Positions 22,093-64,000 of a stretch of 64,000 nucleotides of DNA are shown one piece after another. Every line of letters starts with the position of its first letter. The stretch's first letter is position 1. The stretch is from Calditrichia bacterium (GTDB lineage Bacteria; Calditrichota; Calditrichia; RBG-13-44-9; J075): the NCBI GenBank assembly GCA_050633245.1, contig JBOEGD010000018.1, forward strand, positions 64,001 to 128,000. Direction: 5' to 3'. The translations under genes were made by a program, and so were the position numbers. The notes below the pieces were generated by a model that had not been told where the DNA came from, searched no databases, and saw only the letters and a list, made by a program, of their open reading frames with translations.

Positions 22093-22093
22093 T

Positions 22094-48300: not shown

Positions 48301-48535
48301 GAGCGGCAACGCAAGTTTGAGGAATGGGACATTGTTGGTCTAGCTGACTCCATCCCGTATCAGAGGAGGAGTCTTGCTTGAGTAAGTAGAGCTTACCGTC
48401 TGTTCCACTGGAGAGAATCTCACTGAGACCATCGGGACCCTCAATTACAGTAAGACGATCAGCGGCATGAACAGGTCTATGAAAATACGCATTCTCAATT
48501 AATTGACTTTTGTGCTCCAGGTTATTTGTTGGCAT
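45314..48535 (-). CDS. Large hypothetical protein (about 1073 aa): beta-propeller-like N-terminus, helical middle, hydrophobic helical C-terminus
   Basis: Probable start MPTNNLEHK overlaps the upstream stop by 14 nt; no signal peptide; several TM-like helices in the last ~180 aa. Confidence 0.75.
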   Translation of the reverse strand: MPTNNLEHKSQLIENAYFHRPVHAADRLTVIEGPDGLSEILSSGTDGKLYLLKQDSSSDTGWSQLDQQCPIPQTCVAALTSSDGKLHLAVADEKSLEIATRVRSEAGVWGEWIRIPAGNSVAGEARFYELDLHERSDGSVEFFLLYLQRFKYPWNYTYRIGHSLLSAENWQLRFQIDRSFSGWWPTKLPSMTPVINGTQQDLYLFIPEIKSLVAWDGIDGATSPMRTVTTLTEGFLPKIIGLTHDLKTTVYAAGTIGAASGLFQLNGSEFQQIGSVELVDLDGTVDDVGIVNIVGVDSTGSVWHTSKDSEGTFFPLREITDKALRASATLTETEGPVFILTGIDLQLSRYLRSPQQTDWELENIETESTASEWVMWYNTRSTVTDNLKQAVAGYPVTIQAEETTILSVNGKTLVVGPFQQLSLETDGNGLLVFMQPAEELANLWVPKLNIRLAGDAAGTWHTISAAAATSDRMYNLTGQELRTATGRNGAKVLPAGEDANADALAAQISTCASIGRSKPNHGQFTIPDYEGNPEHLPEFGFAHFTALDGSLNERFDIHDVFESIKEGILGVIGLAIETVVEGGLVKQLVVTINTVAGEFKTVISIISQGFNVIRAIFEEVKIVFETALEWLGYLFDWEKILQRKDEIAAMITEGIASLPQKIADSGIKDKIPETFAQLRTGAPAGIATFQTGIGQDTLGSAADSIDLTTLGDIINAIDDTIMVPVTWLFDRLAPILPDSSLITASMDGGSWDQLTTFFNNVQGQVSGDVQVSIDNITAVMESVFMGDNPNALLLNDLIDAFKPRMDGILTAFEHLSLEALTNLEGLAEPDSLTAFLNSSAKLPLFSEVLALINNQSGELPFTILDFAAMIAAIPVHIIETAVGGPEAINVGASKCDVWIVAGVFLLMVGLFSGIAHILEEAGDGLSSMVPLFWIFALIPLAILVDWSEVIQVLAVVFYTIYQVVDLVLIRKAVQNHETGMAIFGFLIAIVLNIMAAIYERDNEVPTWQIVANHVGSITDFARVADLKWKPPKVKPKPARVILTIIDALGMGSLAASAFAEYHFCANPPPTEPA

Positions 48536-49022
48536 TTTGTGCCTCCAGCGTATACAATACTGTGGCATGCCACCCTCGACCTCCTTTGTACTTGGCGGTA
48601 AAGCCAGGTATATTCGTTGCTGCGGTAATTGTGTTATCACCAAAAAGAGGAATATTCCAGGTCATCGTAAGGGTCTGTTCGGGATTGTCTTTTACCTGGT
48701 AGATAACTTTGCCGTAAAAGTTACACCCATCATAGTTACTGAACCATTCACCTGAACCACCTGCCGGAATATGGTCCGGTGGCTTCGTTGCCTTACTGTC
48801 AAGGCCTTCAGAACTAACGAGCTTGAGTTCAAAAGGACTTTGATTGCTTAGCTCGCCATCAAATGAGTATGCAGCCATCGGCAATGGCGTCATTGCAAGA
48901 ATGGCACTTGCAGCTTGTATTTGCACATGCTCATTTTCAGACTCTAATCCTTTCTCCAGGATATCAATTGCTTTTCCAACAGCGGTTTGAACTCTTTGAA
49001 AATCTAGTGGTTGTTTTGACAT
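48522..49022 (-). CDS. Aegerolysin/Cry34(ET79)-like protein with N-terminal helical extension
   Basis: LSNQSPFELKL, PPDHIPAGGSGEW, GKVIY, WNIPLFGDN, GGRGWHATVLYTL resemble the aegerolysin beta-sandwich pattern; GGGGA RBS. Confidence 0.6.
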   Translation of the reverse strand: MSKQPLDFQRVQTAVGKAIDILEKGLESENEHVQIQAASAILAMTPLPMAAYSFDGELSNQSPFELKLVSSEGLDSKATKPPDHIPAGGSGEWFSNYDGCNFYGKVIYQVKDNPEQTLTMTWNIPLFGDNTITAATNIPGFTAKYKGGRGWHATVLYTLEAQNANK

Positions 49023-49655
49023 GGAGTTTCCCCGTGATAATAGTAATTTGGACATGCAGCATCATGCATGTGACATATGGATTAATAGAATTAACCACCT
49101 GTACTTATCTCCCTTTTCGGGATAAGAAAAAATGTGATGATAAAAGACGATGTGAGTAAAAATGCTTGAAAAAGAATACACATACAAAAGAGTGATAACA
49201 AGACTAAACTTAGTATTTGATAAAATAGCATTGGAAGATTCACCCAAACTAGTCAAGAAACATTGATTTTCACTAAAATAGAATGTCCCCAATAGTCCAT
49301 TTTACAAAAATCTGATTATCTTTATCCTCTGGAAATAATCGCCTTGAGGTTCTCAGAGGTAGAATCAAAAACTCTTGTCGATAATGGGCTACAATAATTG
49401 ACAATTAATGTTGTTTTTTTTGGTAGAATTTCGTGTTGTTTTTGCTGCCTTTTCAGACCAAAAACGTGCAATGCCTTTTTTTCTGATTTTTTTTGAATGT
49501 GTTTTTCTTCCTGTTTATCCCACTATTTAGTTTTTGCTTTAAGTTTAATACAAAATAGACTTATGAGCTTTTTCTGCACGTTTAAAAAGGTTTCTAAACG
49601 TTCTTTGAGCTTATTGGGTTTATATCGGAATCTGATAGAATTATCGGAAACTGGT

Positions 49656-49685
49656 TTGAAACAGCGAAGGGCAATCTGCTATACT
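49656..49685 (+). promoter_or_regulatory. Sigma70-type promoter of the RiPP operon
   Basis: TTGAAA-18 nt-TATACT with extended -10 TG, 70 nt upstream of the first gene. Confidence 0.5.
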
Positions 49686-49755
49686 GAAACAGCATTTAAC
49701 AACGCCACATCAAATTCAACTTCGCAGTAACAGAATGCATCAAGCAGGAGAGTAA

Positions 49756-51225
49756 ATGCCGAACCTTTGTCTCGATAAGCAAACCATCTTCATAACCGAC
49801 GACAGCGGACTGCAGGTCCTGAATCGCAGAGGTTCCTTCCGCCTTCATGGCAAGGGTCTCGATTCTCTGCACACTCAGCTGAAGCCGTATTTAGATGGCT
49901 CGCTTGACGAAGAGACTCTGCTTCAGGCGATCCCACAAAACTCTCGGGAAGTAGTTACCTCTTATCTGGGCAAGATGAAAACTATCGGAGCACTCCAACC
50001 ATCCGGTCAGCATGCTGAAGCCGTAACAGAGATTGATGTTCCGTTAGATACTCTTCTACAGTCACCTGTAAGTTCCATCCATTTTCACTTGAACAACCAG
50101 CGGGCCTCGATTACAACAGATCGTGATTTAACGGCAGTAATTCCAAAAAAATCCGAGTATAAGATCTGTCTGATCTTTGAGCAAAAGCTTGATGAAATCA
50201 TTGCGCGAATCGAGCAGTTGACCCGCCATAATGGAACGGTTGGAATTCTGCTGATCTCGGGAGTTACTGGCAGACGTGAATTGCAGGAAAGCTTCGCAAA
50301 AAAAATGTTTTTACAGCAGGTACTCGATACTTTGCTTAGAAGCTATAGCGATATTTTTCAGAGCGAAACGCGCCTGACGGTGCATGCAGTTGACCTGGAA
50401 TGCAGCACTTTGAGTCAACTTTTACAGCTTGTTGAGAGCCCGGTTGAGCAAATAGAATTTGCCAATGTAAAAGATTGGTTTCAGCTGGTTGAGTTTAGCA
50501 ATGAAACACAGTTGCCACTGGTAAATGCGCGTCTTGCAGCGAAGTATCTCGATTTTCCAAAGCAGGCATGGGGACTTAGTTTTCAGAAGCTGGAGCGTCG
50601 ATTAATCCTCGAGCTGAAGTCGTCCTTGATCAGGCGTTTCTCAGACAATGCTCGCTTTCAGTTTTCTAAACCAGCACATCTTACATCCGCAGAAGAACGA
50701 AAGTCGGGTTTGCCTGCATCACACAATGAGTTCTATGTTGACGATTCCCTGGCTGAGCTGCGGCTTATCTGCCTGGAGTCTTTTCTGATGAAAAAAGTCA
50801 ATAAGACTGAGCTTGCCAGTAAGTCTAAAGAACACGATATGCTTTCGCGTGAATCGCTTGGAAACAGCTGCCAACTTTTAATGCAGATTCTTTCCCTGCG
50901 CCTAAAAGACTTTACTGTTAATCGCTATCAGTCTGAATCCGGACTGTTTGTCTATTGGTTAGAAGATTTTTGCTCCTATTCATTCATAGAAGAAAAGTCT
51001 TGCTTCGAGATGTTGATGTATATCGTCGGGCGGGTTTACTACGACACCCGTTTGGAAGCAACCGATATTCGCAGTGCTGCACTAGACTATGTGGCCGACG
51101 TAATTCTGAACGAACTCGTAGAAAAGCATTCGCTGGAGCTGGAGCAATCTTATCCGGAAGCTCGCTTTATTTATGTTGAGCAGGAGCTTTGGCAAGAAAA
51201 CTTATTCATGGGATATATAGGCTAA
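49756..51225 (+). CDS. RRE-containing YcaO partner (ocin-ThiF/TbtF-like)
   Basis: AGGAG RBS; N-terminal three-strand/three-helix RRE pattern GSFRLHGKG...LKPYLDG...LLQAIP...YLGKMKTIGAL; directly precedes YcaO. Confidence 0.65.
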   Translation: MPNLCLDKQTIFITDDSGLQVLNRRGSFRLHGKGLDSLHTQLKPYLDGSLDEETLLQAIPQNSREVVTSYLGKMKTIGALQPSGQHAEAVTEIDVPLDTLLQSPVSSIHFHLNNQRASITTDRDLTAVIPKKSEYKICLIFEQKLDEIIARIEQLTRHNGTVGILLISGVTGRRELQESFAKKMFLQQVLDTLLRSYSDIFQSETRLTVHAVDLECSTLSQLLQLVESPVEQIEFANVKDWFQLVEFSNETQLPLVNARLAAKYLDFPKQAWGLSFQKLERRLILELKSSLIRRFSDNARFQFSKPAHLTSAEERKSGLPASHNEFYVDDSLAELRLICLESFLMKKVNKTELASKSKEHDMLSRESLGNSCQLLMQILSLRLKDFTVNRYQSESGLFVYWLEDFCSYSFIEEKSCFEMLMYIVGRVYYDTRLEATDIRSAALDYVADVILNELVEKHSLELEQSYPEARFIYVEQELWQENLFMGYIG

Positions 51226-51227
51226 AA

Positions 51228-53075
51228 ATGAATGTAATTGTAAACCATAGGCAAGAAACATCTCAAAAGCACGCTTTGGAACAGCGCATCTCTTCCCTGG
51301 TGGATGACATTTGGGATGGGGCTATCGAAGTTGCTTTCCTGCATAATTTACATTCGCATAAGCCTGGCTTTACTCTGCCGCTTGAAGCTACTCTTTACTG
51401 CGTTTTTGATTATCATAGTATGCATCTCTGTTGTTGTTATCCCGATAGTGAGAATGCCTGCATAAATTGCCTGGTTCAAAATTTATTCCGCAACTATGAC
51501 CTCACGCTGCGCAAGCGCTACCAAAAGCAAGATCATCAAACGTTTCCATTCTTTTATTCGCAAGAATACCTGTCTGTTCTGCCAACACTTGTCTCTCAAC
51601 TTGATGCAAAAGACTTTTACAGCATCAACTTTTTATCGCCGACGATTGAACGGCAGGCGTTTATGCCAAGCGTAATGTGTGATTGCCGCAAAACCCCTCG
51701 CTCATTAATGAAACAATTAGACGGGCACGATTTAGAGCTTGAGGACCGATTTGTCGATTCAAATCTGCGATCTGACAAGCTGCCTAAATTGGAAGCCTTT
51801 GTTTCTCAGAGTGCCGGCATTATTTCAGGCGAAAGACGACTTAGTGATACACTTTCCCTACCGACAGCAATAACGGAGACGATCTCCGGAACCTATCAAG
51901 CCGATTACTGTGGCGGTAAAGCTACGACGATGCAGCATGCTTCACTGATTGCAAAGTGCGAGGCGATTGAGCGACATCATATGCTGACACCGGGAGTTGA
52001 AGACTTGTTAACATTCGGTAGTTACGATATGCTGAAGTCGCAGGCTGTGAACCCGGACGATTTGTTTTACTCTGCCGTGCATCTTTCTGATGAAAATGTG
52101 CCGTATGATCCTGCAATGTCCTTTTATTGGAGAACAGCAGCGAATCTTACCCGAAATAGCCGCCAGTTGGTGCCAGCTCAGGAAGTTTGCTCTACAAAAC
52201 ATCTTACAAATGAACGGAGTATGTTTCCCTGCACTTCGAGTGGATTTGCACTTGGTGGTTCCTATGAGGAAGCAGTGCTGTTTAGCATCCTTGAGGTCGT
52301 AGAGCGAGATAGTTTTTTGGTGCACTGGTATCTAAAGAATCAGTGTCAGTTAGTAGACCCATTGAGTATTAAGGATGAGCAATTTCAGCTGCTGTATCTG
52401 AAGGCACAATACTGTCATCCGAACTACAATTTTTATTTTCTCGATATCACAACAGATTCTGCTATTCCTGCTATCTGGGGACTTGCCATAAAGCGCTTTG
52501 GGCAGGGTATGAAAACCATGACGACTGCGGCTGCTCATATTTTTCCCGAAAAGGCGATGTATGGAGCCTTGAAGGAACTCGTCGGCTACTTTAGTATGAC
52601 AAACGATTTTGCAGAGAGAGAAGCAGAGTACCGTAAGGTGTTTCGAAATCAAGCTCTGGCCAATAAAATTGACCATCATAGCGGTATTTACGGATTGGAA
52701 GAGGCAGTAGAGAAATATGACTATCTGAACCTTGATTCCCAAAAGGCTATCAATGTTCAGGAGCTTCAACAGCGCTCGATCTTTACAGACCTCGCAGTAC
52801 CGTTTAATCTGAAGGATCTGATTCTCGCGATTGTTCAGCAGCTAAAAAAGAATGGAAATGAGGTTTTAATTATAGATATGACTCGTGAGCAGATACGAAA
52901 ATTCGATATCTGCTGTGTGAAAACGATTGTTACTCAGATGTATCCACTCACCTTCGGATATTATGACATGCGTTTTTCTTTAAGCTCACGGTTATTGAAG
53001 CTAAATGAGCATTTTGGGAAAAAACCGATTAGTTGTTTAACAGATATTAATTTTTCACTACATCCATTTCCATAG
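51228..53075 (+). CDS. ycaO: Azoline-forming YcaO cyclodehydratase with N-terminal E1-like remnant
   Basis: ACINCL, CEAIERH, TSSGFALG, ILEVVERDSF, DITTD, ALKEL, DMT, C-terminal LHPFP (PxP). Confidence 0.9.
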   Translation: MNVIVNHRQETSQKHALEQRISSLVDDIWDGAIEVAFLHNLHSHKPGFTLPLEATLYCVFDYHSMHLCCCYPDSENACINCLVQNLFRNYDLTLRKRYQKQDHQTFPFFYSQEYLSVLPTLVSQLDAKDFYSINFLSPTIERQAFMPSVMCDCRKTPRSLMKQLDGHDLELEDRFVDSNLRSDKLPKLEAFVSQSAGIISGERRLSDTLSLPTAITETISGTYQADYCGGKATTMQHASLIAKCEAIERHHMLTPGVEDLLTFGSYDMLKSQAVNPDDLFYSAVHLSDENVPYDPAMSFYWRTAANLTRNSRQLVPAQEVCSTKHLTNERSMFPCTSSGFALGGSYEEAVLFSILEVVERDSFLVHWYLKNQCQLVDPLSIKDEQFQLLYLKAQYCHPNYNFYFLDITTDSAIPAIWGLAIKRFGQGMKTMTTAAAHIFPEKAMYGALKELVGYFSMTNDFAEREAEYRKVFRNQALANKIDHHSGIYGLEEAVEKYDYLNLDSQKAINVQELQQRSIFTDLAVPFNLKDLILAIVQQLKKNGNEVLIIDMTREQIRKFDICCVKTIVTQMYPLTFGYYDMRFSLSSRLLKLNEHFGKKPISCLTDINFSLHPFP

Positions 53076-53084
53076 AGATTGAAA

Positions 53085-53546
53085 ATGACCCGACTGCACA
53101 TAAATAAGCGCGAGTATTCCGCAAAAGCGGATGCAGACATGCCACTACTCTGGTATCTGCGAGACATCCTGAACCTGACCGGCACAAAGTTTGGATGCGG
53201 TATGGGGCTTTGTGGTGCGTGCACGGTGCTCGTCGATGGTAAGGCTGCGCGGTCTTGTATGGTAACGATCAGTAGCGTAGAAAATAAAGAAGTGACAACA
53301 ATTGAAGGCATCTCACAGCGAATGAATAATCGTCTGCAGCCGGTCTGGATTGAAGAGCAGGTGCCTCAGTGTGGCTATTGTCAAACTGGACAAATAATGT
53401 CCGCGCTGGCTCTACTCAAAACAAATCCAAATCCCTCAAATGAGGAAATTGAAGCGGCGATGTCTGGCAATATTTGTCGCTGCGGAACGTATTCGAGAAT
53501 TAAGAAGGCAATTTGTTCAGCTATCGGTGAGGAAAGCCGTGGCTAA
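53085..53546 (+). CDS. iorA: (2Fe-2S)-binding small subunit, isoquinoline 1-oxidoreductase alpha-like
   Basis: PLLWYLRD, GTKFGCGMGLCGACTV, RSC, VPQCGYCQTGQ, NICRCGTY. Confidence 0.92.
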   Translation: MTRLHINKREYSAKADADMPLLWYLRDILNLTGTKFGCGMGLCGACTVLVDGKAARSCMVTISSVENKEVTTIEGISQRMNNRLQPVWIEEQVPQCGYCQTGQIMSALALLKTNPNPSNEEIEAAMSGNICRCGTYSRIKKAICSAIGEESRG

Positions 53547-55665
53547 CAAAGGAACGCTCAGCAGACGCAGCTTTATAAAAATATCTGCGGCAGCAGCCGG
53601 CGGACTCCTGATAAGTTTTGGAATTCCAACTTTAACTAAAGCAGAAGAGAAAAATATCGTGTTAAACCACCATCTCAGCATAAACAGCAGCGGTATTGCT
53701 ACTATCTCCTTCCTGAGAAGCGAGATGGGGCAGGGCATTAAGACCGCGCTTCCAATGTTGATTGCAGAAGAACTGGAGATGGATTGGAAAAACGTACAGG
53801 TTACTCAGCCGCCCTACGATATTCGATTTGGACAGCAGGCTACCGTGGCAAGCAGAAGTATTCATGATGAATGGGAGGCGCTGCGGCAAGTTGGTGCATC
53901 TGTACGTGAGCTATTGATTCTGGCTGCTGCAAACCGTTGGCAGGTTCATCCAGAGAGTTGCTATGCCGAGCGTGGTGTGGTTTATCATTCTCAGAGCTCA
54001 AAATCATTAAGCTATGGTCAGCTCGTTGAAGAGGCTGCACGTCTTGAAATGCCGGAAAATGTGGCGTTAAAAAAGCCTGCGGACTTCAAGTTGATTGGCA
54101 AATCGATTCCACGGATAGATATCCCTGAAAAAGTTATGGGTCGTGCAGTCTTTGGCATTGATGTGAACGTGCCTGAGATGGCTATTGCTACGGTCTTGCG
54201 CTGTCCGGTATTTGGTGGAAAGGTTAAACGTTTTGATGCGACGAAAACAAAAAAATTAACGGGTATTATCGATGTGGTTGAGATTACCGGCGGTATTGCG
54301 GTAATTGGCGAAAACTATTGGGCTGCCAAGCGCGGTAAGGACATGCTGGATGTGCAGTGGAATGCAAAAGGTCTGGAAGATATTAATTCTGAAAGCATTT
54401 TTATTGGGCAGCGTGAAGCATTGGTGAAACCGGGTGATCATATTGTTACAGATGAAGGCAATTTTACTTCGGCTTACAACAAGGCTGAATGGCAGCTGTC
54501 GGCAGACTACGAGGCGCCTTTTCAAGCTCATGCTACAATGGAGCCAATGAACTGCACCGCGGACGTAAAAGAAGGTGCATGTCGCATCTGGGCACCTACT
54601 CAGGGAACACTCTGGATTCAAATGACAATCTCCGAGGCGCTTGAGATTCCCATGAAAAACATTGAAATTCACACGACCTATATGGGGTGTGGCTTCGGAC
54701 GACGCGCAGAAACAGACTTTGTATTAGATGCGGTAGAAGCATCAAAAGCTGTTGGCAGGCCCGTGAAGGTGATCTGGTCTCGTGAAGATGATATGCAGCA
54801 TGACTTTTATCGCCCGGCTTTTTCCATGCAATTAAAGGCAGGAATTGATAAGAACGGAAAGCCTGTTGCCTGGAAACATCAGCTTGCCGGGCCTTCAGTT
54901 GTTCGTCGGTGGGATGTAAGTGCCTTCGATTGGGCTGCAATAACCGGCTCAGACTGGCTCCCGTATTCGATACCCAACTTTCGTACAGAAGCAACCTTTA
55001 TTCCAACGAATGTTCCGGTGGGATACTGGCGTGGAACAGCAAACTCATATACCCAATTTGCAAATGAGACGTTTATCGATGAAATAGCGACGCGACAACA
55101 AATTGACCCTCTTGAGTATAGGCTTGGTTTATTAGAGGATGCACCCAGAGCACGAAAAGTACTCGAAAGCGTTGCTGTTCAGACGCAATGGGGAAGTTCA
55201 TTGCCCGCGGGAGTTGGGCGTGGGGTCGCGTTGTTTGCCCAAGAGTGGGATGAATTTAAGGTCTATTGTGCACAGGTTGCCGACATTGAGTTATCTGAAA
55301 CCGGAGACATTCGAGTGCGCCGCATATTTTGCAGTATCGATTGCGGACAGATAGTACACCCCGATACGGTTATTGCACAAACAGAAGGTAGTATTGTCTT
55401 TGGTCTTGCTGCTGCTCTTTACGGCGAGATTGAAATTGAGAAGGGGAGAGTGAAGCAAAGCAATTTTCACGACTACCCAATGCCAAAGTACAATGAAGTG
55501 CCCGAGATAGAAGTCCGCCTGATAAAAACTACAGAGTTTCCGGCTGGTGCCGGAGAAAAGGCAGTTGGGGCTACAGCACCGGCAATAGCAAATGCGGTTT
55601 ATAACTTAACCGGGCAACGACTACGCCGTTTGCCATTAAGACTGGATAATACAACAATTAGTTGA
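53539..55665 (+). CDS. iorB: Molybdopterin-binding large subunit, isoquinoline 1-oxidoreductase beta-like (xanthine dehydrogenase family), Tat signal
   Basis: LSRRSFIK twin-arginine, SEMGQG, LIAEEL, HATMEPMN, GCGFGRR, WSREDD, QSNFHDY, GAGE; GTG start overlaps iorA stop. Confidence 0.92.
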   Translation: MANKGTLSRRSFIKISAAAAGGLLISFGIPTLTKAEEKNIVLNHHLSINSSGIATISFLRSEMGQGIKTALPMLIAEELEMDWKNVQVTQPPYDIRFGQQATVASRSIHDEWEALRQVGASVRELLILAAANRWQVHPESCYAERGVVYHSQSSKSLSYGQLVEEAARLEMPENVALKKPADFKLIGKSIPRIDIPEKVMGRAVFGIDVNVPEMAIATVLRCPVFGGKVKRFDATKTKKLTGIIDVVEITGGIAVIGENYWAAKRGKDMLDVQWNAKGLEDINSESIFIGQREALVKPGDHIVTDEGNFTSAYNKAEWQLSADYEAPFQAHATMEPMNCTADVKEGACRIWAPTQGTLWIQMTISEALEIPMKNIEIHTTYMGCGFGRRAETDFVLDAVEASKAVGRPVKVIWSREDDMQHDFYRPAFSMQLKAGIDKNGKPVAWKHQLAGPSVVRRWDVSAFDWAAITGSDWLPYSIPNFRTEATFIPTNVPVGYWRGTANSYTQFANETFIDEIATRQQIDPLEYRLGLLEDAPRARKVLESVAVQTQWGSSLPAGVGRGVALFAQEWDEFKVYCAQVADIELSETGDIRVRRIFCSIDCGQIVHPDTVIAQTEGSIVFGLAAALYGEIEIEKGRVKQSNFHDYPMPKYNEVPEIEVRLIKTTEFPAGAGEKAVGATAPAIANAVYNLTGQRLRRLPLRLDNTTIS

Positions 55666-55916
55666 GCTTATGTAACTCATCTCCGATGAGCTGATAGTAA
55701 AATATAGCATAGTAGTTGAGATTAATCGAAGCTGTCGTGAGTGCGGTGGCTATAGAAATGAACAAAAAAATAATGTCTGGAGGAACGTACCCGGTTTTTC
55801 TTGGTCGAACTTTCCGCTTAACACGGAGAGCCCAATATAAGGACTGCACAAACTAAATTTTCCACACGTTTATTGCATTTGGTGGAATTGTGTTAAAACC
55901 CTTTAGGAGAAATAAC

Positions 55917-56087
55917 ATGAAAAATTTCAAACTGAATATCGATCTTGAAGAACTGAACATCACCGAAGTAGAACTGTTTACTGAAGAAGGCACTAAGGGC
56001 ATTCCTGCATTCGCAGCTTCCTGTTCGTCAGGTCCTGGTCTCCATAGTTGTGTTCGTGAAGAGAAGCCGGCACCAAACGACGAGTAA
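55917..56087 (+). CDS. Thiopeptide-type RiPP precursor (56 aa)
   Basis: AGGAG RBS; acidic leader MKNFKLNIDLEELNITEVELFTEEGTKGIPAFAA, core SCSSGPGLHSC, tail VREEKPAPNDE. Confidence 0.85.
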   Translation: MKNFKLNIDLEELNITEVELFTEEGTKGIPAFAASCSSGPGLHSCVREEKPAPNDE

Positions 56088-56295
56088 TCGTTGCTGAGAA
56101 GTAAAGCTGATCTACAAAAATACTGTGTCAGGTAGTCAGATACATGACACAAAATCGGTGCAGAACTTAATCTGGTGAAACCGGGTTACGTTTCCTCCAA
56201 ACATTAAAAACTTAATAGAAATATACGCTCGGCGCAAGTTAAAGAAAAACTGATGGCTTGTTGTCGAAGTGTATTCCTTTTCAAGGCGGTAGACG

Positions 56296-57405
56296 ATGAA
56301 GGTCTGGAAGAATGTAAATGTCTATTATTCAAACCTCGACAAGCTTATTCTCGATTGTGTTGAACCGACTATGAATGAAAAGCACGAGCAAATTGTCGAT
56401 TGGTTTTGGGATAGGCATTATGCCGGCGGAATGCATCTGCGCATTCGCTTTAAGTGCTCACAAAATGAATCTGAGGCGCTTATTGGAGAACTTACAGATG
56501 TTTTTGAACGATTTCTCTTGGCTCATCCCCTTCCGGCGCAAAAGTCTTATGACGTTAATCGTGTAGAACAGATGCTGCAAAAAGAAGAGGAAGAGTATAC
56601 TCCTGAAGATCTGCTATTCCGAACAAATTGCGTCGTGAATCGGCCTTATTTGCGTTTTCAGGAAAAATATCTTTCGCAAGAGTCTGTTTATTTTCTGGAA
56701 GATTTTTATTGTGAGGCGAAGCCACTTTGCCTGCAAATGATGCGTTCAAATGATCAAAAAACCGTTAGCATGTTAAAGCTATATTTTCTCACTGCATTGA
56801 TGTTGGGAAAATCTTACCCCGCTGGTGTGGTTGGGTATCGGTCGCATTGGGAAGGGTTCAGAATGCAAATGGCAGAGCAAAACGTCGGAGTTCTGGATGC
56901 CATCGAAAAAGTATTTCGCAGTAATAAAAGTAACCTCGAAGAGTTAATGCTGGTGATCGAAAAACAGCATCGTGGCGAAGAAACCCCTTGCGATTTACTG
57001 CTGGAAAGCTGGGGAAAGCTGATAAATAAATATCGCACGAGAGCATTGGAATTATTTGATCGCGGAGTTCCTATTCTCCCGCAATTCAATAGTGAAGAAG
57101 AGCTGGATGTTGTTCGCAATAAATACGCGCGGCAAAAGGAAAAAAGCGAGTTTGTAGAAAGGCTATACGAAGATAAACGATTTTTCCTCGCCATAAAAGA
57201 TAGTCGATCCTTCACCGGAAATCGCATTGTTCTGACCATGCTTTACAATATGGTCGGTTTGCTGGGGCTTAGTATGATGGAAAAATTTCAGCTTTGCTAT
57301 CTGGCTCATCAAACGGTTGAAAACTATTTTCAGAGTGACTCACTTGAAATTCTTGCCGCTAATATCCGCGAAACCATAGCAGAACATACTGAAGAGAGCA
57401 CCTAG
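56296..57405 (+). CDS. Thiopeptide pyridine synthase ([4+2] cyclase, TbtD/TclM-like)
   Basis: RHYAGGMHLRIRF, YRSHWEGF, RIVLTMLYNMVGLLGLSMMEKFQLCYL resemble the cyclase branch of the LanB_C fold. Confidence 0.7.
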   Translation: MKVWKNVNVYYSNLDKLILDCVEPTMNEKHEQIVDWFWDRHYAGGMHLRIRFKCSQNESEALIGELTDVFERFLLAHPLPAQKSYDVNRVEQMLQKEEEEYTPEDLLFRTNCVVNRPYLRFQEKYLSQESVYFLEDFYCEAKPLCLQMMRSNDQKTVSMLKLYFLTALMLGKSYPAGVVGYRSHWEGFRMQMAEQNVGVLDAIEKVFRSNKSNLEELMLVIEKQHRGEETPCDLLLESWGKLINKYRTRALELFDRGVPILPQFNSEEELDVVRNKYARQKEKSEFVERLYEDKRFFLAIKDSRSFTGNRIVLTMLYNMVGLLGLSMMEKFQLCYLAHQTVENYFQSDSLEILAANIRETIAEHTEEST

Positions 57406-57474
57406 GGCTCAATTCACAAAAGAGAATATGTGTCCTTTGTCTGCACAAATCTTAAGGCCGGAAGGAATAACAGC

Positions 57475-59841
57475 ATGCGTTTGCTAGCTTTACGAAAATC
57501 CGGAGAGTCTTTTAGCAGTGTCTTTAACGTGAAGTCGGATTGTTTCGTTGAACTTTTTCAGAAACAGTCCAGGCTTCAGGAGAAAATCACCTCATTGCAA
57601 AACGAACTTGCTGAGTTGTTGCACCACGCTTTTAGACAGAACTACGATCAAAAAGAGCACCGAAGATATATTCTGAAGATAAAGCGCGATATTCATAACC
57701 TCCGCCCTGTGAAGCATATGGACGCCTCATTTCTTGGCCACGATTGTCTGGATCAGCTTGGGACGTATTCCAGGCTGGTAGAGGAGAAGTCTGAGGTTTT
57801 AAGCCAGCTTAACACAGCTCCACTCGAAGAAATCAGAAATAATATTGGTACACTGCTTCGGAATGAAAAATTTCTGAGTGCGATAGATTATTCGAATCCG
57901 GAACTGTTTGCGAAATTAAAAAAGTATCAGACGGGAAGCAGTAAGAAACACTTCTCCAAGCTCGAACGCAGCGTATACAGTTATGGATTACGATTCTTTA
58001 GCAAGGCCAACCCACTGTATGTTTTTAGCGAGTTATGGTTTGCCGAAGAACTGGGAATTGAAATAGAGCAGAGCTGTGAGCTTTCGCTTCATATGAATTA
58101 CATCCTCGGAATTGAAGAGCATTTGCTGAGTTATGCCGGTGTTCAGGAAAAGGATTTGCTTTATTGTCAAAACTCCTTAAAAAGAGAAGAGAAAATAACG
58201 TTTATCATTCCAGATGCAAGAGCCAAACGCTATCTTTCGATTTCGTCCAATCCGCTACTCGACAAAATTTTATTTTTTTTTCACCGACAGCTACCCAAAG
58301 AAAAAAGTATTGGCAGACTAACAGAATACCTGCACAGCGAATTCCCCAATGAAGATGTCGAAGGGCTGCAAAACTACGTCGCTGCCTTAATAAAAAACAA
58401 GATTTTAGTGCGGTACCTGGTTCGCGATTTCAGCAAATTTTATGTCGATCTTGAACAACAGCTTTTAAGTATGGAAAAACAACTGAAGGACTATCAGGAG
58501 ATCCATCACGGTCACTTTGACTATTCGCAGTTGTCCCAAAAAACCAACGATGATCAAATACTCGACTCCCAACTACGTCATAAGGCTCCTGCGAACTATC
58601 GCTCGTTCTATGTGGATTCGTATTTTAAAACTTCGGCTCGGGGGCCGAATGAGAAATCCTTTACGGAAACCCTGCAAGATTTAAAGCAGGTAAAACCGCT
58701 CTTCCTGCCAAATGGCAATAACCGCTATATGGCGGATAATATTGTTTTGTTGTTGAAAGATATTCTGGCCGACAAATCGTGCAATTCGATTCCCTTTCTC
58801 GACTTCCTGGATCACTGCATTCAAAATAGCGTAAATTTCTCTTCTCTGCCACCTGCACAAAATTCTGCCCGCGAGAGTTTCGAGCAGCAAAGTGCGTTGT
58901 TGCAAAAGAAGTTGGCCACGTTACAGGGAGAGCTCGAAAAGCCAATTCTAGAGCAGCTTACCCAAAAATATGATGCACCAAAGATAAATCCACACTTGTG
59001 TTTTAACGGTCCATTCGATTATCAAAACCAGCGTTACTATATAAACAATATTTGGGCCGGCAACGGGCGGTTTATTTCCCGGTACCTGATTAATCAGCCG
59101 GGCAAGCGAGCCCGTAAACATGCGAACAGTTCTGCCGGACTAAATGTACAAGTGTACGACTTTTTTGATAACTCGAATAAGGGGTATACGGTAACTCCTT
59201 TTGATGTCGGCTTTGGCATGAATGCTCGTTTTAAACATTTGTTCAAAGAATGGTTGACTCCGGAGGAAATACAGCTGTCTCTTGATGGAGATCAGGTTAT
59301 TTACTCTAAAGCCGGTAGCGGGCAGCGTATTCATTTCTATTATCTTGGGTTTGCCTTAATTTCCGGACTTGCAACAGAATACCAGATTCTCTTAGCAAAT
59401 AAGAATGACTTCTATTTGAATAGCTTCGCCGATTGGATTATCCCGCATGCTGATGCGAACCCTTTTCAACCGGGCCTAACCTATGGACAAATTTGCCTGA
59501 GACGAGACCGTTGGTACATCCCGGGAAAGGAAATTCCGGCGCTAATTCCGGCTGATAATACGGTTAGCTGTGCTATGAGGTTGTTAAGCTGGGCTGAAAG
59601 AACACTGGATAACTCTTGTCGCTATTACTATTTCCGTACTGCAGGAAATGCAACCAGGTTTGCTCATAAGCCGATGTTCCTGGACGTACAGAATCCACTC
59701 AGCGTGTCAAATTTTTATACCCGCATTGCCCAAAACGATCCGAACAGTTTTGTCTGTTTTGAGCGCATGGAACCGCCTATAAATAATCTTTATGAGTATG
59801 AGAAGCAAAAATATCTCACCGAAGTTATGCTGGAGGTTTAG
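57475..59841 (+). CDS. Split LanB dehydratase, glutamylation domain
   Basis: LKIKRDIHNLR, FLSAIDYSNPEL, RFFSKANPLYVFS, GNGRFISRY, LRRDRW, KPMFLDVQNPL, FERMEP, YLTEVMLE. Confidence 0.85.
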   Translation: MRLLALRKSGESFSSVFNVKSDCFVELFQKQSRLQEKITSLQNELAELLHHAFRQNYDQKEHRRYILKIKRDIHNLRPVKHMDASFLGHDCLDQLGTYSRLVEEKSEVLSQLNTAPLEEIRNNIGTLLRNEKFLSAIDYSNPELFAKLKKYQTGSSKKHFSKLERSVYSYGLRFFSKANPLYVFSELWFAEELGIEIEQSCELSLHMNYILGIEEHLLSYAGVQEKDLLYCQNSLKREEKITFIIPDARAKRYLSISSNPLLDKILFFFHRQLPKEKSIGRLTEYLHSEFPNEDVEGLQNYVAALIKNKILVRYLVRDFSKFYVDLEQQLLSMEKQLKDYQEIHHGHFDYSQLSQKTNDDQILDSQLRHKAPANYRSFYVDSYFKTSARGPNEKSFTETLQDLKQVKPLFLPNGNNRYMADNIVLLLKDILADKSCNSIPFLDFLDHCIQNSVNFSSLPPAQNSARESFEQQSALLQKKLATLQGELEKPILEQLTQKYDAPKINPHLCFNGPFDYQNQRYYINNIWAGNGRFISRYLINQPGKRARKHANSSAGLNVQVYDFFDNSNKGYTVTPFDVGFGMNARFKHLFKEWLTPEEIQLSLDGDQVIYSKAGSGQRIHFYYLGFALISGLATEYQILLANKNDFYLNSFADWIIPHADANPFQPGLTYGQICLRRDRWYIPGKEIPALIPADNTVSCAMRLLSWAERTLDNSCRYYYFRTAGNATRFAHKPMFLDVQNPLSVSNFYTRIAQNDPNSFVCFERMEPPINNLYEYEKQKYLTEVMLEV

Positions 59842-59844
59842 ACT

Positions 59845-60702
59845 GTGAAGCGTTGGGTTAGTTATCATGCTTTTTTAACAGAGGATACAGATCGCTATAT
59901 AACGGCTTTTCTATTGCCGGGAATTGAGCGCATCGGAATACAGATGCCTGAAGTAAAGCGATTCTTCTTTCTTCGCTACTGGGAAGGTGGAGCACACCTT
60001 CGCTTGCGCTTTCGCATTGCTGAGGAGGCCGCTATTAAGCCACTCGAAACAGAGCTTCAGCAAACGCTGGATCGCATGGCCAGGTTGAACGATCAGCAGG
60101 CGTTTATTCTCTCTGGTTCGGAAAGTCGATCGACGTGCTTGAATCCTCAAAATTTCGTGCTGATGCGCGCCGAATACGATCGGAGCAGTCATTATTTTGG
60201 TGAATCGATGGCTTCTGTATACTCCGAACTGATAAACGAACAGACTTCTTATTTGGCGATCGCTATGCTGGATTTCTGTTACGAGTCCGGGATAGACCGC
60301 CAGACGCTTGTTATACTTGTAGTCAATTATCTGATGTCGAAGAGCCTGGTAGATTATGAATTACGGCAAAAGTTAATTAATCGAGGATATGAGTTTGCTA
60401 CCCTGAATACGCAAAAATATTTTACCTCTGTTGCGTTTAAGGCACCTGTGCTGCAAAACAAACAACTCGCGGCGTTAGTCAGGAATAGTGAAGCACTGTA
60501 TCCGTTCTTTTCTTCAAATACCTACCTCAAGCAGATACTGCGCTTGATTAAGCGGATCTATCATCATAATTACGACGAGTGCATCGTGGTGCATTCCATT
60601 CATCTGCTTTGCAATAAGCTGGGTGTCAACTTACCTGCCGAGGCGGCTATTTATGATATCATTAGTTCTTTAGAAAACTTTCAAGTAAACCACCAAACCT
60701 GA
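59845..60702 (+). CDS. Split LanB dehydratase, glutamate-elimination domain (LanB_C)
   Basis: WVSYHAF, FFFLRYWEGGAHLRLRF, EYDRSSHYFG, SIHLLCNKLG..EA. Confidence 0.8.
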   Translation: MKRWVSYHAFLTEDTDRYITAFLLPGIERIGIQMPEVKRFFFLRYWEGGAHLRLRFRIAEEAAIKPLETELQQTLDRMARLNDQQAFILSGSESRSTCLNPQNFVLMRAEYDRSSHYFGESMASVYSELINEQTSYLAIAMLDFCYESGIDRQTLVILVVNYLMSKSLVDYELRQKLINRGYEFATLNTQKYFTSVAFKAPVLQNKQLAALVRNSEALYPFFSSNTYLKQILRLIKRIYHHNYDECIVVHSIHLLCNKLGVNLPAEAAIYDIISSLENFQVNHQT

Positions 60703-60726
60703 AACGCAGGATGACACGGGAGCATC

Positions 60727-62604
60727 ATGGATACTGTTAAGAATAATGAGTGGCTTAACGATTCTGAGAAAAAGAACATCAACTGGAACAACATCTTTCG
60801 GTTCGCGGCATATTACTATCCATTGCGAAATAAGCTGTTTATTGTGATGGCTCTAGCCTTCATTTTTGCCTTTGCCGCCTATTTAATCCCGGTTGTTTTT
60901 GCGCAAACTCAAGCTGCTTTTATTACTGAAAATAGAGATCTCTTTCTTCTGTCTATGCTGGGCTATTTAGGCATTCTTACCTTCCAGAGTGTGATGACGT
61001 ATAGTATTAAGATTTTGCAAACATCGGTTTTTACATGGTTGAATAAAGACGTTTTACTTCGCTATTATTCCAAATTGCTCAATATCTCAGTTCCCGATTA
61101 TCTGGCATTTAAAAACCGCACGAATCTGTTTCAGCGAGTGATGGACGTCGTGTTGATAACATCTGATGCGACCAACGTGTTTTTCGGCATTATCATTAGT
61201 GGAATAAGTGTCGTTATATTTGGCGGCATTATTTTTTACCTTTCCCCCCTCGTTTTCGCCGTGCTAATTGTCGGAAGCGTCTTTTTGATTTTATCGATGC
61301 TTTACTATACGCCAAAGCTGCGCAATTTGCGTCAACGTTGCCTGGCAATTGGCTACCCTCTCGTATCAAAGATGATCGAAATTATTGAAGGTCTGGTTAC
61401 AATTAAGACACTTACCGCCTCTGTGAGCGTCACTTCGGATATTACCGAACTGATTGATGGTCGAAAGGATGCAGAGTATAATGAAGGTGTAAAATATGCC
61501 GAGGCCGACCTGCTCAAGTCCTTTATTCGCAACAGCATTTTGATCGCAGCGGTATCTGTTAGCTTTTATCAACTGCTTATCGGCCAACTTCCAGTATCGG
61601 ATGTGTTCGCCTTGTACATCTTAATATCGAGCTTTTTAAGCCCTGTCCAGCAGCTTGTCAGCCAATACCTAAAACTCTCTACCATCTCAGTCAATATTAA
61701 CAAATACATGGAGATTATCGACCTGGAGAATGAATTTGCTGCGCCAATTTCAACAAATGGTAATGGTCGGAGTCATACTAATGGAACAACGCCACAGACC
61801 TATAATGGGACACATAAAAATGGTGTTAATACAATATTTAATAATGGTAATGGTCACGCAAATGGTCACCTGCGAGGAAATATTCGCTTTAACGACGTGC
61901 GGTTTGGATATGAAGAGTCGCAGTCTGTTTTGAAGAATATTGATGTTGAAATTAGTGAAGGACAACGAGTTGTTCTCATCGGTAAAAGCGGTGCGGGAAA
62001 GACAACATTGATGCGCCTTCTCCTTGGATTCATGGAGCCCGATTCCGGCTCTATTTCTGTAGATGGAAAAGAACTTTCAAACCTAATTACCAGCGGTAAG
62101 TATCGCAAGCACTTTGGGATCGTCAGTCAAAATGACTTTTTATTCAACGTGAGTATTAGAGAAAACCTGCTTTTTGGATTGTCTGAGTGCGATAAACATG
62201 CAGATCTGGAGACGGTGTTAAGGGCTGTTAACCTATGGGATGATATAGCCGAGTTAGAGGATGGTGTAGATACCATTTTCGAGAAAGAACGCTTTTCAGG
62301 TGGACAAAAACAACGCCTGATAATTGCACGTGCATTAATCCGCGATCCGGATATCGTTCTACTTGATGAACCAACAACGGCATTGGATTTCGAAAATGAG
62401 CGCATCATCGGCGAGGCACTCGAGGCATTGGTGGGTGGAAAGACCTCGCTGACTATTGCCCACAAGCTTTCTACAATTAAGTCGGCCGATTTGATTTTGG
62501 TATTAAAAGGTGGTCGAATTGTGGATAAGGGGACGCATAGCGAATTGCTGACGCGGTCAGAATACTATCGCAGTCTTTGCGAATTCAACAGCTTTATTGT
62601 TTAG
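60727..62604 (+). CDS. ABC exporter (fused TMD-NBD, no peptidase domain)
   Basis: TM helices, GKSGAGKT, FSGGQKQR, LLDEPT, IAHKLST. Confidence 0.93.
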   Translation: MDTVKNNEWLNDSEKKNINWNNIFRFAAYYYPLRNKLFIVMALAFIFAFAAYLIPVVFAQTQAAFITENRDLFLLSMLGYLGILTFQSVMTYSIKILQTSVFTWLNKDVLLRYYSKLLNISVPDYLAFKNRTNLFQRVMDVVLITSDATNVFFGIIISGISVVIFGGIIFYLSPLVFAVLIVGSVFLILSMLYYTPKLRNLRQRCLAIGYPLVSKMIEIIEGLVTIKTLTASVSVTSDITELIDGRKDAEYNEGVKYAEADLLKSFIRNSILIAAVSVSFYQLLIGQLPVSDVFALYILISSFLSPVQQLVSQYLKLSTISVNINKYMEIIDLENEFAAPISTNGNGRSHTNGTTPQTYNGTHKNGVNTIFNNGNGHANGHLRGNIRFNDVRFGYEESQSVLKNIDVEISEGQRVVLIGKSGAGKTTLMRLLLGFMEPDSGSISVDGKELSNLITSGKYRKHFGIVSQNDFLFNVSIRENLLFGLSECDKHADLETVLRAVNLWDDIAELEDGVDTIFEKERFSGGQKQRLIIARALIRDPDIVLLDEPTTALDFENERIIGEALEALVGGKTSLTIAHKLSTIKSADLILVLKGGRIVDKGTHSELLTRSEYYRSLCEFNSFIV

Positions 62605-62630
62605 AATCCCTGAAATCTGGAGTTGACAAT

Positions 62631-64000
62631 ATGAAAATCTGCCTGAAGCAAAAAGCGAAATCTACTGCAATTTGCATTGCCATTCTTTGCCTGATATCGA
62701 TTCCGATGAAAGCACAGGAGATACTCATTCCGGTCAAGGGGAAATTGTTGACTGAGAATGGTGAAGCCGTAATGTTTGCTAATATTTTTGTGGAGGGAAC
62801 AAGCCTCGGCACAATGTCTGATGAGAAAGGGGCCTTTGAAATTTTTTTGCCAAAAGACGATCTTACTAAAAACCTGATCGTTTCTTATATCGGTTATGAG
62901 GAGATTATGATTCGCTTAAGTGATCAGAAGGACTTGACAGGTATAGTACTGAAACTTGGCGATGAAAAGTCTATTCGTAACGAGAATGTTTTCGTATATG
63001 GAAAGCGTCCGGTACTCAAGACGCGCGGTGTCGAAAAAGATTTTATGTCGCTACTTGTTACCGAGGCCGATGGCGCTGATATAATTGAGGCCAGCTCTAA
63101 AATGCCTGGTAGCCAAAAAAAGGACAACGATTCCCGAATTTACTTGCGCGGCGGTGAGTTTTATGAAACGCGATTTATCTCTGATGGTGCTTACTTACTG
63201 AATCCTTATTTAACCAATACCGGTTTCGGGGCTATTGGGTCTTATATCGATGCCACTGATGCGAGCACTTACCTGTTTTCATCCGGAGGGTTTTCGTCCC
63301 GCTATACCGGAGCATTATCTGGAATTGTCGAAATAAAATCGAGCAATTTTCGGGAAGGTTGGTCCAGTATGACTGTTGCTGCTCTTCCTGAAGGCCTTGT
63401 TTTACATCGCGAAATGCCCTTGAGCAAGAGAGTCGGGTTTGCATTTAGTGCCTTTGCATTCGATCAGGATTCGTATTTTCAGGCCAATAAATCTTTGTTT
63501 TCAGTAGCAGAAGAACTCGATGTTTTTAGCGATCATCCCAAAGGCTTTACGACCAAGGGGCGTATAAATGCAGATTTAGGCGTGGCAGGACATTTAAAGG
63601 CCTCGGCTGCAATTGCCCAAACAGATTATGTGTATAAAATTCGAGTCGTTGGTAATCGCATCGATCTTGCTTCAACAGAAAACCATCGTCATTTCAATAT
63701 GCTGTACACAAATTTCTTTTCGACGAAGCTTGGGGTCGAAAGCAATGTTGCCCTAACCAACTATGATACGGAGTCGCTTCTAAGCGAAACAAACTGGCGA
63801 AACTCGTCAACTTTTTTTCAGTGGAATACGATTGGAAATTACTACTTCGACGAGTCGCGTGACTTGCAATTTGGCATGAATCTGCATGCTCTTGACTTGC
63901 AAACAGAACGCTACTTTCTGGATGAGGGGCAGGCCGACTTTAGGCCAGACTTAGCCAGTGGACGAAACCACATTATCCCGCAAAGCGGCATTTTTGCAGA
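62631..64000 (+). CDS. TonB-dependent receptor, N-terminal part (runs off the window; not in the ORF track)
   Basis: GGAG RBS; MKICLKQKAKSTAICIAILCLISIPMKAQ signal, KGKLLTENGEAVMFANIFV..VSYIGYE, IYLRGG, SSGGFSSRYTGALSGIVEI plug motifs. Confidence 0.85.
   Translation, partial: MKICLKQKAKSTAICIAILCLISIPMKAQEILIPVKGKLLTENGEAVMFANIFVEGTSLGTMSDEKGAFEIFLPKDDLTKNLIVSYIGYEEIMIRLSDQKDLTGIVLKLGDEKSIRNENVFVYGKRPVLKTRGVEKDFMSLLVTEADGADIIEASSKMPGSQKKDNDSRIYLRGGEFYETRFISDGAYLLNPYLTNTGFGAIGSYIDATDASTYLFSSGGFSSRYTGALSGIVEIKSSNFREGWSSMTVAALPEGLVLHREMPLSKRVGFAFSAFAFDQDSYFQANKSLFSVAEELDVFSDHPKGFTTKGRINADLGVAGHLKASAAIAQTDYVYKIRVVGNRIDLASTENHRHFNMLYTNFFSTKLGVESNVALTNYDTESLLSETNWRNSSTFFQWNTIGNYYFDESRDLQFGMNLHALDLQTERYFLDEGQADFRPDLASGRNHIIPQSGIFA

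Follow-up and report, generated by a model that had tools for sequence, protein, structure and literature searches.

A probable thiopeptide-type biosynthetic operon with a sister-clade relative of the TbtD/PbtD pyridine synthases in a Calditrichota genome

Thiopeptides are potent translation inhibitors, the known chemistry of which is limited by poor solubility and by the restriction of producers to Gram-positive bacteria, and to our knowledge this chemistry has been studied almost only in such organisms. A locus in the genome of a Calditrichia bacterium (NCBI GenBank assembly GCA_050633245.1) raises the question of how a diderm might make, modify, export and perhaps re-import a peptide of this kind, because genes of outer-membrane, periplasmic-redox and second-cyclodehydratase type have been added to it. 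The stretch of DNA analysed, hereafter the window, comprises 64,000 nucleotides (positions 64,001 to 128,000 of contig JBOEGD010000018.1). We consider it quite probable, from the sequence, that the locus is a thiopeptide-type operon for a peptide that is made ribosomally and modified post-translationally (RiPP), formed by 15 co-oriented genes, here A to O, over ~20.5 kb. How a diderm might handle such a peptide is a topical matter since known thiopeptides cross the outer membrane of Pseudomonas via TonB-dependent siderophore receptors, as stated in passages of two reports (PMC10128021; bioRxiv 10.1101/2020.04.23.057471).

The cluster spans window-equivalent positions 49756-70218, all on the plus strand, the window itself ending inside gene J. 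The original prediction, made from the letters of the window, had described a co-oriented run of a RiPP recognition element (RRE) protein, a YcaO protein, a precursor, two LanB_C-fold proteins, a LanB glutamylation domain, an ABC exporter and a TonB receptor; all of the elements so named are present on that strand, but genes C and D (53079-55665), which lie inside the run, had been overlooked. The expectation that the cluster might continue past the window is borne out by a further ~6.2 kb that hold the rest of J and then five more genes, K, L, M, N and O, with a second cyclodehydratase set among them. For these the coordinates are window-equivalent, that is, the position on the 252-kb contig minus 64000. 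The features are as follows.

Gene A, 49756..51225, plus strand: RRE protein of 489 aa, candidate leader-binding partner of the YcaO protein (from fold and profile)
Gene B, 51189..53075, plus strand: YcaO cyclodehydratase of 628 aa (TTG start) or 615 aa (ATG start at 51228)
Gene C, 53079..53546, plus strand: 2Fe-2S subunit of the xanthine-dehydrogenase/aldehyde-oxidase family (from Pfam)
Gene D, ~53539..55665, plus strand: molybdopterin-binding subunit with a twin-arginine export signal (from Pfam; the frame is open from 53440)
Gene E, 55917..56087, plus strand: precursor of 56 aa (from the open reading frame, its ribosome-binding site and homologous leaders)
Spacer, 56088..56295, plus strand: intergenic region from E to F with predicted hairpins
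Gene F, 56296..57405, plus strand: Lant_dehydr_C protein of 369 aa, predicted [4+2] pyridine synthase (from profile, tree and fold)
Gene G, 57430..59841, plus strand: split-LanB glutamylation protein of 803 aa (Lant_dehydr_N-type)
Gene H, 59845..60702, plus strand: Lant_dehydr_C protein of 285 aa, split-LanB glutamate-elimination domain
Gene I, 60727..62604, plus strand: ABC exporter of 625 aa, permease and ATPase fused
Gene J, 62577..64814, plus strand: CarboxypepD_reg-headed, TonB-dependent-receptor-like outer-membrane protein of 745 aa, cut by the window end
Gene K, 64842-65567, plus strand, outside the window: TPR-like protein of 241 aa with a signal peptide
Gene L, 65548-66672, plus strand, outside the window: SagB-type dehydrogenase (ThcOx domain and nitroreductase)
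Gene M, 66563-67612, plus strand, outside the window: second SagB-type dehydrogenase
Gene N, 67603-68868, plus strand, outside the window: SagC-type protein, E1-like/ThiF
Gene O, 68869-70218, plus strand, outside the window: SagD-type YcaO, the second in the cluster

The hallmark of a thiopeptide cluster, a [4+2] pyridine or dehydropiperidine synthase, is represented here by the protein of gene F at the levels of clade, profile and fold, its catalysis being predicted. Over its full length F scores 162.6 bits on NF045556 (TbtD_PbtD_pyrid) against a curated cut-off of 325 bits, and is for that reason classed as a sister-clade relative and not as an equivalog. A phmmer search of the PDB sequences with F retrieved TbtD at 3e-10, together with PbtD and with no LanB, and the same search with H found nothing, while a profile built from the F clade matched TbtD at 1.9e-41 and PbtD at 1.9e-38. 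The AlphaFold2 (AF2) model of F has a predicted local distance difference test score (pLDDT) of 95.4, and its nine best Foldseek rows from the PDB are all PbtD or TbtD, with template-modelling (TM) scores of 0.68-0.73 by query and 0.82-0.85 by target; TsrL is next, followed by LanB C-terminal domains at only 0.38-0.45 by query. Likewise, of the 48 columns that are at least 85% conserved in 26 bona fide rows, 31 have the same residue in F.

The relatives of F tell the same story on a larger scale. A HMMER scan of 1.84 billion representatives returned 292 matches at E <=1e-3 and 35 at <=1e-30 (F itself included in the latter), and NF045556 is the best NCBIfam family in all 74 sequences sampled from the 149 non-self matches listed; the nearest 21 of those sampled reach 108.7-180.2 bits on this family, and 35 of the 53 more distant ones exceed 325. 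A word-indexed homologue search with F recovered only F itself among 2392 candidates, and a single-protein scan of genome contigs gave 44 pattern matches with no relative among them. In a tree of 79 rows F lies within a 36-row clade (Shimodaira-Hasegawa-like approximate likelihood-ratio test, SH-aLRT, 100) beside a 25-row bona fide clade (99), and eight elimination domains, including H, are split from the cyclase clades at a support of 95. This was a quick IQ-TREE run with SH-aLRT support only, in which over-long translations of open reading frames were cut back to the final 375 or 290 residues, a truncated H homologue from locus L009 being left out; it carries warnings of long branches and of an atypical amino-acid composition of F. 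Whether the product of 56296-57405 groups with elimination domains or with cyclases was the point on which the original prediction had offered to fall, and phmmer, NCBIfam, tree, profile and fold all place it with the cyclases. Judged by sequence and modelled structure, F is related to the pyridine synthases, its clade being sister to TbtD/PbtD, and does not group with the elimination domains.

The substrate of such an enzyme would be the product of gene E, which has an AGGAG 6 nt upstream of its ATG and consists of a 34-residue acidic leader and a 22-residue core. The core contains Ser1, Ser3, Ser4 and Ser10, Cys2 and Cys11, and His9, and continues into an 11-residue charged, proline-containing tail; the initial Ser and the later Ser-Cys pair of a thiopeptide core are found as Ser1, with Cys2 beside it, and Ser10-Cys11. 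Having only two Cys, this core is poor in potential azoles. Neither Pfam nor NCBIfam, precursor families included, has a match to E. By tblastn, E finds homologous leaders in 10 of the 11 genome loci described below, and a motif scan collected 31 distinct precursors in which the conserved acidic leader always ends just before a core-initial Ser. All 31 also have a downstream Ser-Cys, often inside a Cys-Ser-Cys, and many of the relatives' cores are far richer in Cys than that of E. Because of these homologous leaders, and of the core-initial Ser and later Ser-Cys shared by the 31 precursors, sequence comparison indicates that the precursor is real. The spacer between E and F, folded as 56080-56300, has a predicted energy of -56.5 kcal/mol, which 2 of 200 shuffles equal (z -2.6), no more than a hint; it is possibly a partial terminator or a processing site; a scan of 48800-64000 for promoters and terminators stayed at chance, with 26 promoters against 28.1 expected and 11 terminators against 14.4.

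The remaining core enzymes are those which a thiopeptide pathway would need. Gene A matches no Pfam or NCBIfam family and has no ThiF signature; its AF2 model has a pLDDT of 65.5 from a 7-row alignment, and the best PDB match found by Foldseek for the N-terminal domain is the RRE of PbtF (8t19), with a TM score by target of 0.88 and a root-mean-square deviation of 1.4 A over 83 columns, TruD and LynD following with poor superposition. PbtF, the Ocin-ThiF-like partner in GE2270 biosynthesis, is also the sole match of the A-family profile in the PDB (E 9.5e-4), and on this evidence from profile and model A carries a PbtF-like RRE. The ~400 residues outside the RRE have no assigned fold, and comparison of the A family with the SagC-type protein N by hhalign was not significant (probability 0.18), so that no likeness to ThiF is claimed for A beyond its RRE. 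When the RRE of A (residues 1-95, supplied with a 7-row alignment) and the precursor (supplied with none) were modelled as a complex, the score was 0.12 (mark 0.32), which speaks neither for nor against binding. Homologues of A adjoin a YcaO gene in 6 of the 11 genome loci.

The YcaO protein B scores 176 bits on Pfam YcaO and 200.5 bits on TIGR03604 (SagD-type), under the cut-off of 219, has a ~240-aa N-terminal extension, and finds TruD in the PDB at 4e-14, as well as LynD and MusD; its C-terminus, originally described as Pro-x-Pro, indeed reads Pro-Phe-Pro. A YcaO protein together with an RRE-bearing partner is therefore present as B with A, and again as the SagC/SagD-type pair N and O. For N the score on TIGR03882, the leader-binding domain of thiazole/oxazole-modified microcins (TOMM), is 58.4 bits, and for O that on TIGR03604 is 256.1 bits, both above cut-off, O having a C-terminal Pro-x-Pro-x-Pro motif. 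Azoline dehydrogenases are represented twice, L and M reaching 166.5 and 134.9 bits on TIGR03605 (cut-off 78.4).

A split LanB, that is, a glutamylation protein and a separate elimination domain, is found in G and H. G has a partial match to Pfam Lant_dehydr_N (41.5 bits), and its family profile retrieves 6ec7 from the PDB at 3.2e-11, deposited as 'Lantibiotic dehydratase domain protein', which we take to be TbtB, the split-LanB glutamylation protein. H scores 75.4 bits on Pfam Lant_dehydr_C, 58.3 bits on TIGR03891, above cut-off, and 26.8 on NF045556, and its family profile finds the C-terminal domains of MibB (2e-4), 9g04 (6e-4) and NisB (0.1), with TbtD at 0.23 only; by homology H is a glutamate-elimination domain. 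The exporter I matches Pfam ABC_membrane and ABC_tran only and is without a peptidase (C39) domain. According to Pfam and NCBIfam none of the 15 genes encodes a LanC-like domain or a leader peptidase, and the LanC that accompanies LanB in class I lanthipeptide clusters is thus missing; the absence of both, and of C39 from the exporter, fits loss of the leader through its expulsion by the cyclase.

Is this combination of genes a coincidence? A pattern scan (11-row alignment) yielded 11 genome loci, 10 in metagenome-assembled genomes (MAGs) of Acidobacteriota (Acidobacteriaceae, Candidatus Angelobacter, Blastocatellia, Pyrinomonadaceae, Sulfotelmatobacter and Bryobacteraceae) and one in Longimicrobiaceae, and a metagenome scan yielded 37 loci, of which the 15 of at least 5 kb were analysed, five of these repeating genome loci by identical hit coordinates. 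When the 15 cluster proteins were compared by tblastn with the 11 genome loci, F was matched in 11, the precursors in 10, G and L in 8 each, B and H in 7 each, A in 6 and I in 3 (at 40-42% identity, as also in 4 of the 15 metagenome loci), and C, D, J, K and N in none, this last group being without a match in the 15 metagenome loci as well. Since the core gene set and homologous precursors recur in this way in 11 genome and 15 metagenome loci, the comparison indicates that the gene combination is not due to chance. The loci in Acidobacteriota and Gemmatimonadota MAGs (L005-L015, L023-L049) resemble the present one through their F-clade protein, through genes of the types A, B, L, G, H and E, and through a homologous leader, but differ in that their F proteins are only 27-33% identical, in that their cores are rich in Cys, many with Cys-Ser-Cys, and in that none has C, D, J, K or M-N-O.

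Some of these loci depart from the common plan. In the Acidobacteriota-type loci L010, L014 (= L037) and L035 the cyclase gene directly follows the LanB_N gene and tblastn finds no separate elimination-domain gene within the fetched flanks, which leads one to ask which enzyme eliminates the glutamate there. L006 (= L025) and L023 have an RRE protein, a YcaO, a dehydrogenase, a cyclase and a precursor; the 10 kb to each side contain no homologue of LanB_N or LanB_C. The Blastocatellia-type loci L007, L008 (= L029) and L028 contain three tandem precursors, a split LanB, a cyclase, a dehydrogenase and an ABC exporter, and have no YcaO or RRE protein within the fetched flanks, yet their cores contain Cys.

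From these assignments a pathway may be proposed. The RRE of A would bind the acidic leader of E and present the core to B, which would cyclodehydrate Cys2 and Cys11 to thiazolines that the SagB-type flavoprotein L would oxidise to thiazoles. G would glutamylate Ser using Glu-tRNA, and H would eliminate the glutamate to give dehydroalanine, whereupon F would unite the dehydroalanines of positions 1 and 10 by a formal [4+2] aza-cycloaddition and expel the leader. The outcome would be a trisubstituted pyridine closing a 26-membered ring, with the hydrophilic C-terminal tail retained, and the ABC protein I would export it. The ring would have 3n - 4 atoms, and thiopeptides closed between Ser1 and Ser10, such as thiocillin, have a 26-membered ring. 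Read from the genes, the likely product is a macrocycle closed by a pyridine, bearing two thiazoles and a tail of hydrophilic residues. Passages of PMC7327761 define the class by an Ocin-ThiF-dependent YcaO, by a dehydratase of the LanB-like kind and, as the hallmark, by a [4+2] enzyme; this logic maps directly onto A, B and L, onto G and H, and onto F. The original prediction of a thiopeptide-type cluster is supported, since on homology every enzyme type that defines the class is here: YcaO and its RRE partner, azoline dehydrogenase, LanB in split form and a TbtD/PbtD-like cyclase, along with a precursor that has Ser1 and Ser-Cys. Homology shows what the genes are; every step of the chemistry, the size of the ring and what the extra genes do are inferred from it.

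How close is the putative product to known ones? The thiomuracin (Tbt) and GE2270 (Pbt) systems of Actinomycetota resemble this cluster in the likeness of F to TbtD and PbtD, of A to the PbtF RRE and of G to 6ec7, and in the SagB-type dehydrogenase. Here, however, F belongs to a sister clade below the cut-off, A lacks a ThiF or Pfam signature, the YcaO has a 240-aa extension, the leader is of a different family, the core has two Cys instead of many, the host is of the Calditrichota, and TonB-receptor-like, TPR and molybdopterin genes are added. Thiocillin and micrococcin are Bacillus thiopeptides with a 26-membered ring, whose spacing of Ser1, Cys2 and Ser10-Cys11 is like that of E, but in E residue 9 is His and not Cys, the ring interior would be mostly unmodified, and an 11-residue charged tail follows. 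Pyritide clusters combine a pyridine synthase and a split LanB without YcaO or azole machinery, whereas the present cluster has two YcaOs and two SagB-type dehydrogenases. A pyridine macrocycle made from two Ser with few or no azoles would be like lactazole and the pyritides, and it is in their direction, to a scaffold with few azoles, that His9, the low number of Cys and the charged tail of E point. The abstract of PMC9247985 describes pyritides, and passages of bioRxiv 10.1101/2020.04.23.057471 treat thiopeptides with rings of 26, 29 and 35 members together with what they target.

The host had been described as a diderm outside the Actinobacteria, and RpoB agrees, being 76-84% identical to MAG proteins named Calditrichia, Calditrichaeota or Calditrichota and 67% to that of Caldithrix abyssi; two named neighbours disagree, KSB1 (76%) and Caldisericaceae (67%), all other named rows being Calditrichota or Calditrichia. 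By this marker the host is a member of the Calditrichota, a little-studied diderm lineage outside the Actinobacteria, and the window encodes TonB-dependent receptors and type IX secretion system (T9SS) sorting domains, as would suit a diderm of the Fibrobacterota-Chlorobiota-Bacteroidota (FCB) group. A Bacteroidota host, suggested by SusC-like and T9SS domains, was rejected on RpoB and on the phylum size of 86 genomes.

Within this phylum the cluster appears isolated. None of 40 relatives matches F, and the F-clade profile has two matches among the 86 phylum genomes, one in the host itself and the other in G005, where it covers profile positions 3-152 only, in a LanB_C-like open reading frame adjoining a LanB_N fragment; by profile, the host alone among the 86 has an F-clade enzyme. 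The sequence cluster of the second-ranked F relative includes a partial protein named by NCBI as coming from a Calditrichota MAG. The O-type YcaO occurs in three of the 86 genomes, the other two copies being 26-28% identical. G005, of the same taxonomic family as the host, has the LanB_N fragment followed by the LanB_C-like frame, of 363 aa, on contig C93, and a SagD-type YcaO 28% identical to O on contig C58, and this may be a different RiPP cluster.

Other genes set the locus apart. C matches Pfam Fer2_2 (97.6 bits) and Fer2, with all NCBIfam matches below their cut-offs, and D matches MoCoBD_1 (137 bits) and MoCoBD_2 (123 bits), with a TAT_signal match of 19.4 bits that lies below its cut-off. 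Together they conform to the two-subunit pattern of IorAB-like xanthine dehydrogenases and aldehyde oxidases, with a 2Fe-2S and a molybdopterin subunit and no flavin adenine dinucleotide (FAD) subunit, and reach no specific NCBIfam equivalog. The best relatives of D in the same taxonomic family are 36-39% identical and a second copy on contig C1 of the host genome 33%, and C-D is a distinct paralogue, predicted to be periplasmic. Because of its twin-arginine signal, D would act in the periplasm, apart from the cytoplasmic maturation enzymes. For J, the likeness to the receptor claimed originally lies in predicted structure and not in sequence families: its sole Pfam match is CarbopepD_reg_2, and no match to the Plug (PF07715) or the 22-strand barrel (PF00593) appears even at E 10, but its ESM Atlas structure aligns at TM scores of 0.75-0.85 with clusters that bear the name TonB-dependent receptor, PF00593 being present in several of them, which makes J TonB-receptor-like in modelled structure only. 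The extras unique to this cluster, M-N-O, C-D, J and K, probably elaborate or traffic the peptide; M-N-O could install oxazoles or oxazolines at Ser3 or Ser4, and for J and K a part in export, immunity or re-uptake is conceivable. Among the cluster genes none was seen for immunity of the ribosomal-protein type.

A number of findings weigh against the reading of the whole as one thiopeptide-type operon. The core of E has just two Cys, for which two cyclodehydratase systems seem a lavish provision; His stands at 9, before the second ring Ser, where classical thiopeptides have an azole-forming residue; and the long charged tail is atypical. F falls short of the NF045556 equivalog level, and in the HMMER scan its best non-self identity is 33%. 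In the 26 related loci (11 genome, 15 metagenome) nothing corresponds to C, D, J, K or N, and the matches to M and O always coincide there with L-type and B-type genes; position alone assigns these genes to the cluster. Finally, the cluster is known here from its genes, and product, transcript and activity are all predicted from them; among the sequencing runs listed, no RNA run contains the sequence, and three runs of DNA or unknown type contain small shares of 0.05-0.17. The lack of conservation of these extra genes raises the real, if rather unlikely, possibility that two or three units lie side by side: a core thiopeptide-like set (A, B, E-I and L), an independent SagBCD-type azole-peptide module (M-N-O) with an unseen substrate of its own, and unrelated housekeeping genes (C-D, J-K). 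The distribution just described would be explained by it, as would the rarity of the O-type YcaO in the phylum and the twin-arginine signal that places D away from the maturation enzymes. The layout argues the other way, since the 15 genes all point one way and the gaps or overlaps between them are tiny: C begins 4 nt past the end of B, the likely GTG start of D overlaps the C stop by 8 nt, and K, L, M, N and O abut or overlap one another. C-D stand between the YcaO and the precursor genes, M overlaps L, and J and K are tied into the operon by their place between the exporter I and the family-conserved dehydrogenase L, which lies downstream of both. Moreover, no second precursor-like open reading frame was seen beside M-N-O, and D, with its low identity to in-family relatives and another paralogue in the genome, is not the family's conserved copy.

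The other objections touch the product itself. If F were a second elimination domain or a scaffold, the product would be a linear or lanthionine-free peptide with azoles and dehydroalanines, and the Lant_dehydr_C fold common to F and H, the score of F under the TbtD/PbtD cut-off and the scarcity of Cys in the core would all agree with it; we regard this as improbable, given that five kinds of comparison group F with the cyclases, that it keeps 31 of 48 conserved cyclase residues, that a separate elimination domain already exists in H, and that in 31 of 31 related precursors the leader meets the core precisely at a Ser, the arrangement which a leader-expelling cyclase requires. Equally, the patchiness in the phylum (one of 86 genomes, none of 40 relatives), the identity of F to its nearest relatives of at most 33% and a core simpler than theirs are what one would see if the cluster had come in by horizontal transfer and were a silent or decaying copy without a product in this host. 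Such a copy seems very doubtful where all 15 reading frames are intact with zero internal stops, the GC content of 0.42-0.46 is that of the flanks, and the precursor keeps its ribosome-binding site and conserved leader. An operon for a pyridine macrocycle is therefore the reading that we prefer, and its extra genes invite a speculation to which we give little credence: that the peptide is finished in the periplasm and coupled to a receptor, and is not a classical ribosome-targeting antibiotic. After export, TAT-exported C-D would oxidise a heteroaromatic carbon, for example of the His imidazole, a thiazole or the pyridine, and the pyridine-thiazole-His scaffold would be a metallophore or signal taken up or released via J with K. 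No earlier case of RiPP tailoring by a molybdenum enzyme is known to us, no dedicated search having been made; were it true, a thiopeptide scaffold would have been repurposed for outer-membrane biology.

The biosynthetic logic is known, and what would be new, as far as the genes tell, is the cyclase clade, the leader family, the host phylum and the accessory genes. The sister clade of pyridine synthases, previously uncharacterised, comprises at least 35 sequence clusters at E <=1e-30 (self included) in Acidobacteriota, Gemmatimonadota and Calditrichota, and together with the leader motif it provides a ready handle for genome mining, while cores with hydrophilic tails address the solubility problem. 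Predicted thiopeptide clusters in Gram-negatives have already been mentioned in print (in a passage of bioRxiv 10.1101/2020.04.23.057471). In the portions of the literature searched we found no description of the F clade and only automated 'thiopeptide' counts in MAG surveys (PMC13635244, PMC11051675); a prior listing is possible, supplements lying outside that search.

The surroundings of the cluster offer some minor observations. Directly upstream, on the opposite strand, are two open reading frames (45314-48643, minus strand, 1109 aa; 48522-49055, minus strand, 177 aa) with no Pfam family even at E 10. Downstream of O come a histidine kinase/LuxR pair and an AraC regulator and, beyond these regulators and 4 kb past the cluster, a CCP_MauG di-haem cytochrome c peroxidase with a T9SS C-terminal sorting domain (window-equivalent 74150-75616). 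Elsewhere in the window, at 20920-23233 on the plus strand, a third YcaO (390 aa, YcaO 250 bits) is directly followed by a TfuA-like protein, of an NCBIfam type linked to thioamidation, with a sigma-54 activator next at 23881; no obvious Cys- or Ser-rich small open reading frame was seen just upstream. Between 3014 and 16175 the window also encodes large proteins resembling those of conflict systems, namely a caspase-domain (Peptidase_C14) protein of 1104 aa, a TPR-CHAT protein of 1137 aa on the opposite strand, and a NACHT NTPase of 1150 aa that is fused to an FGE-sulfatase domain.

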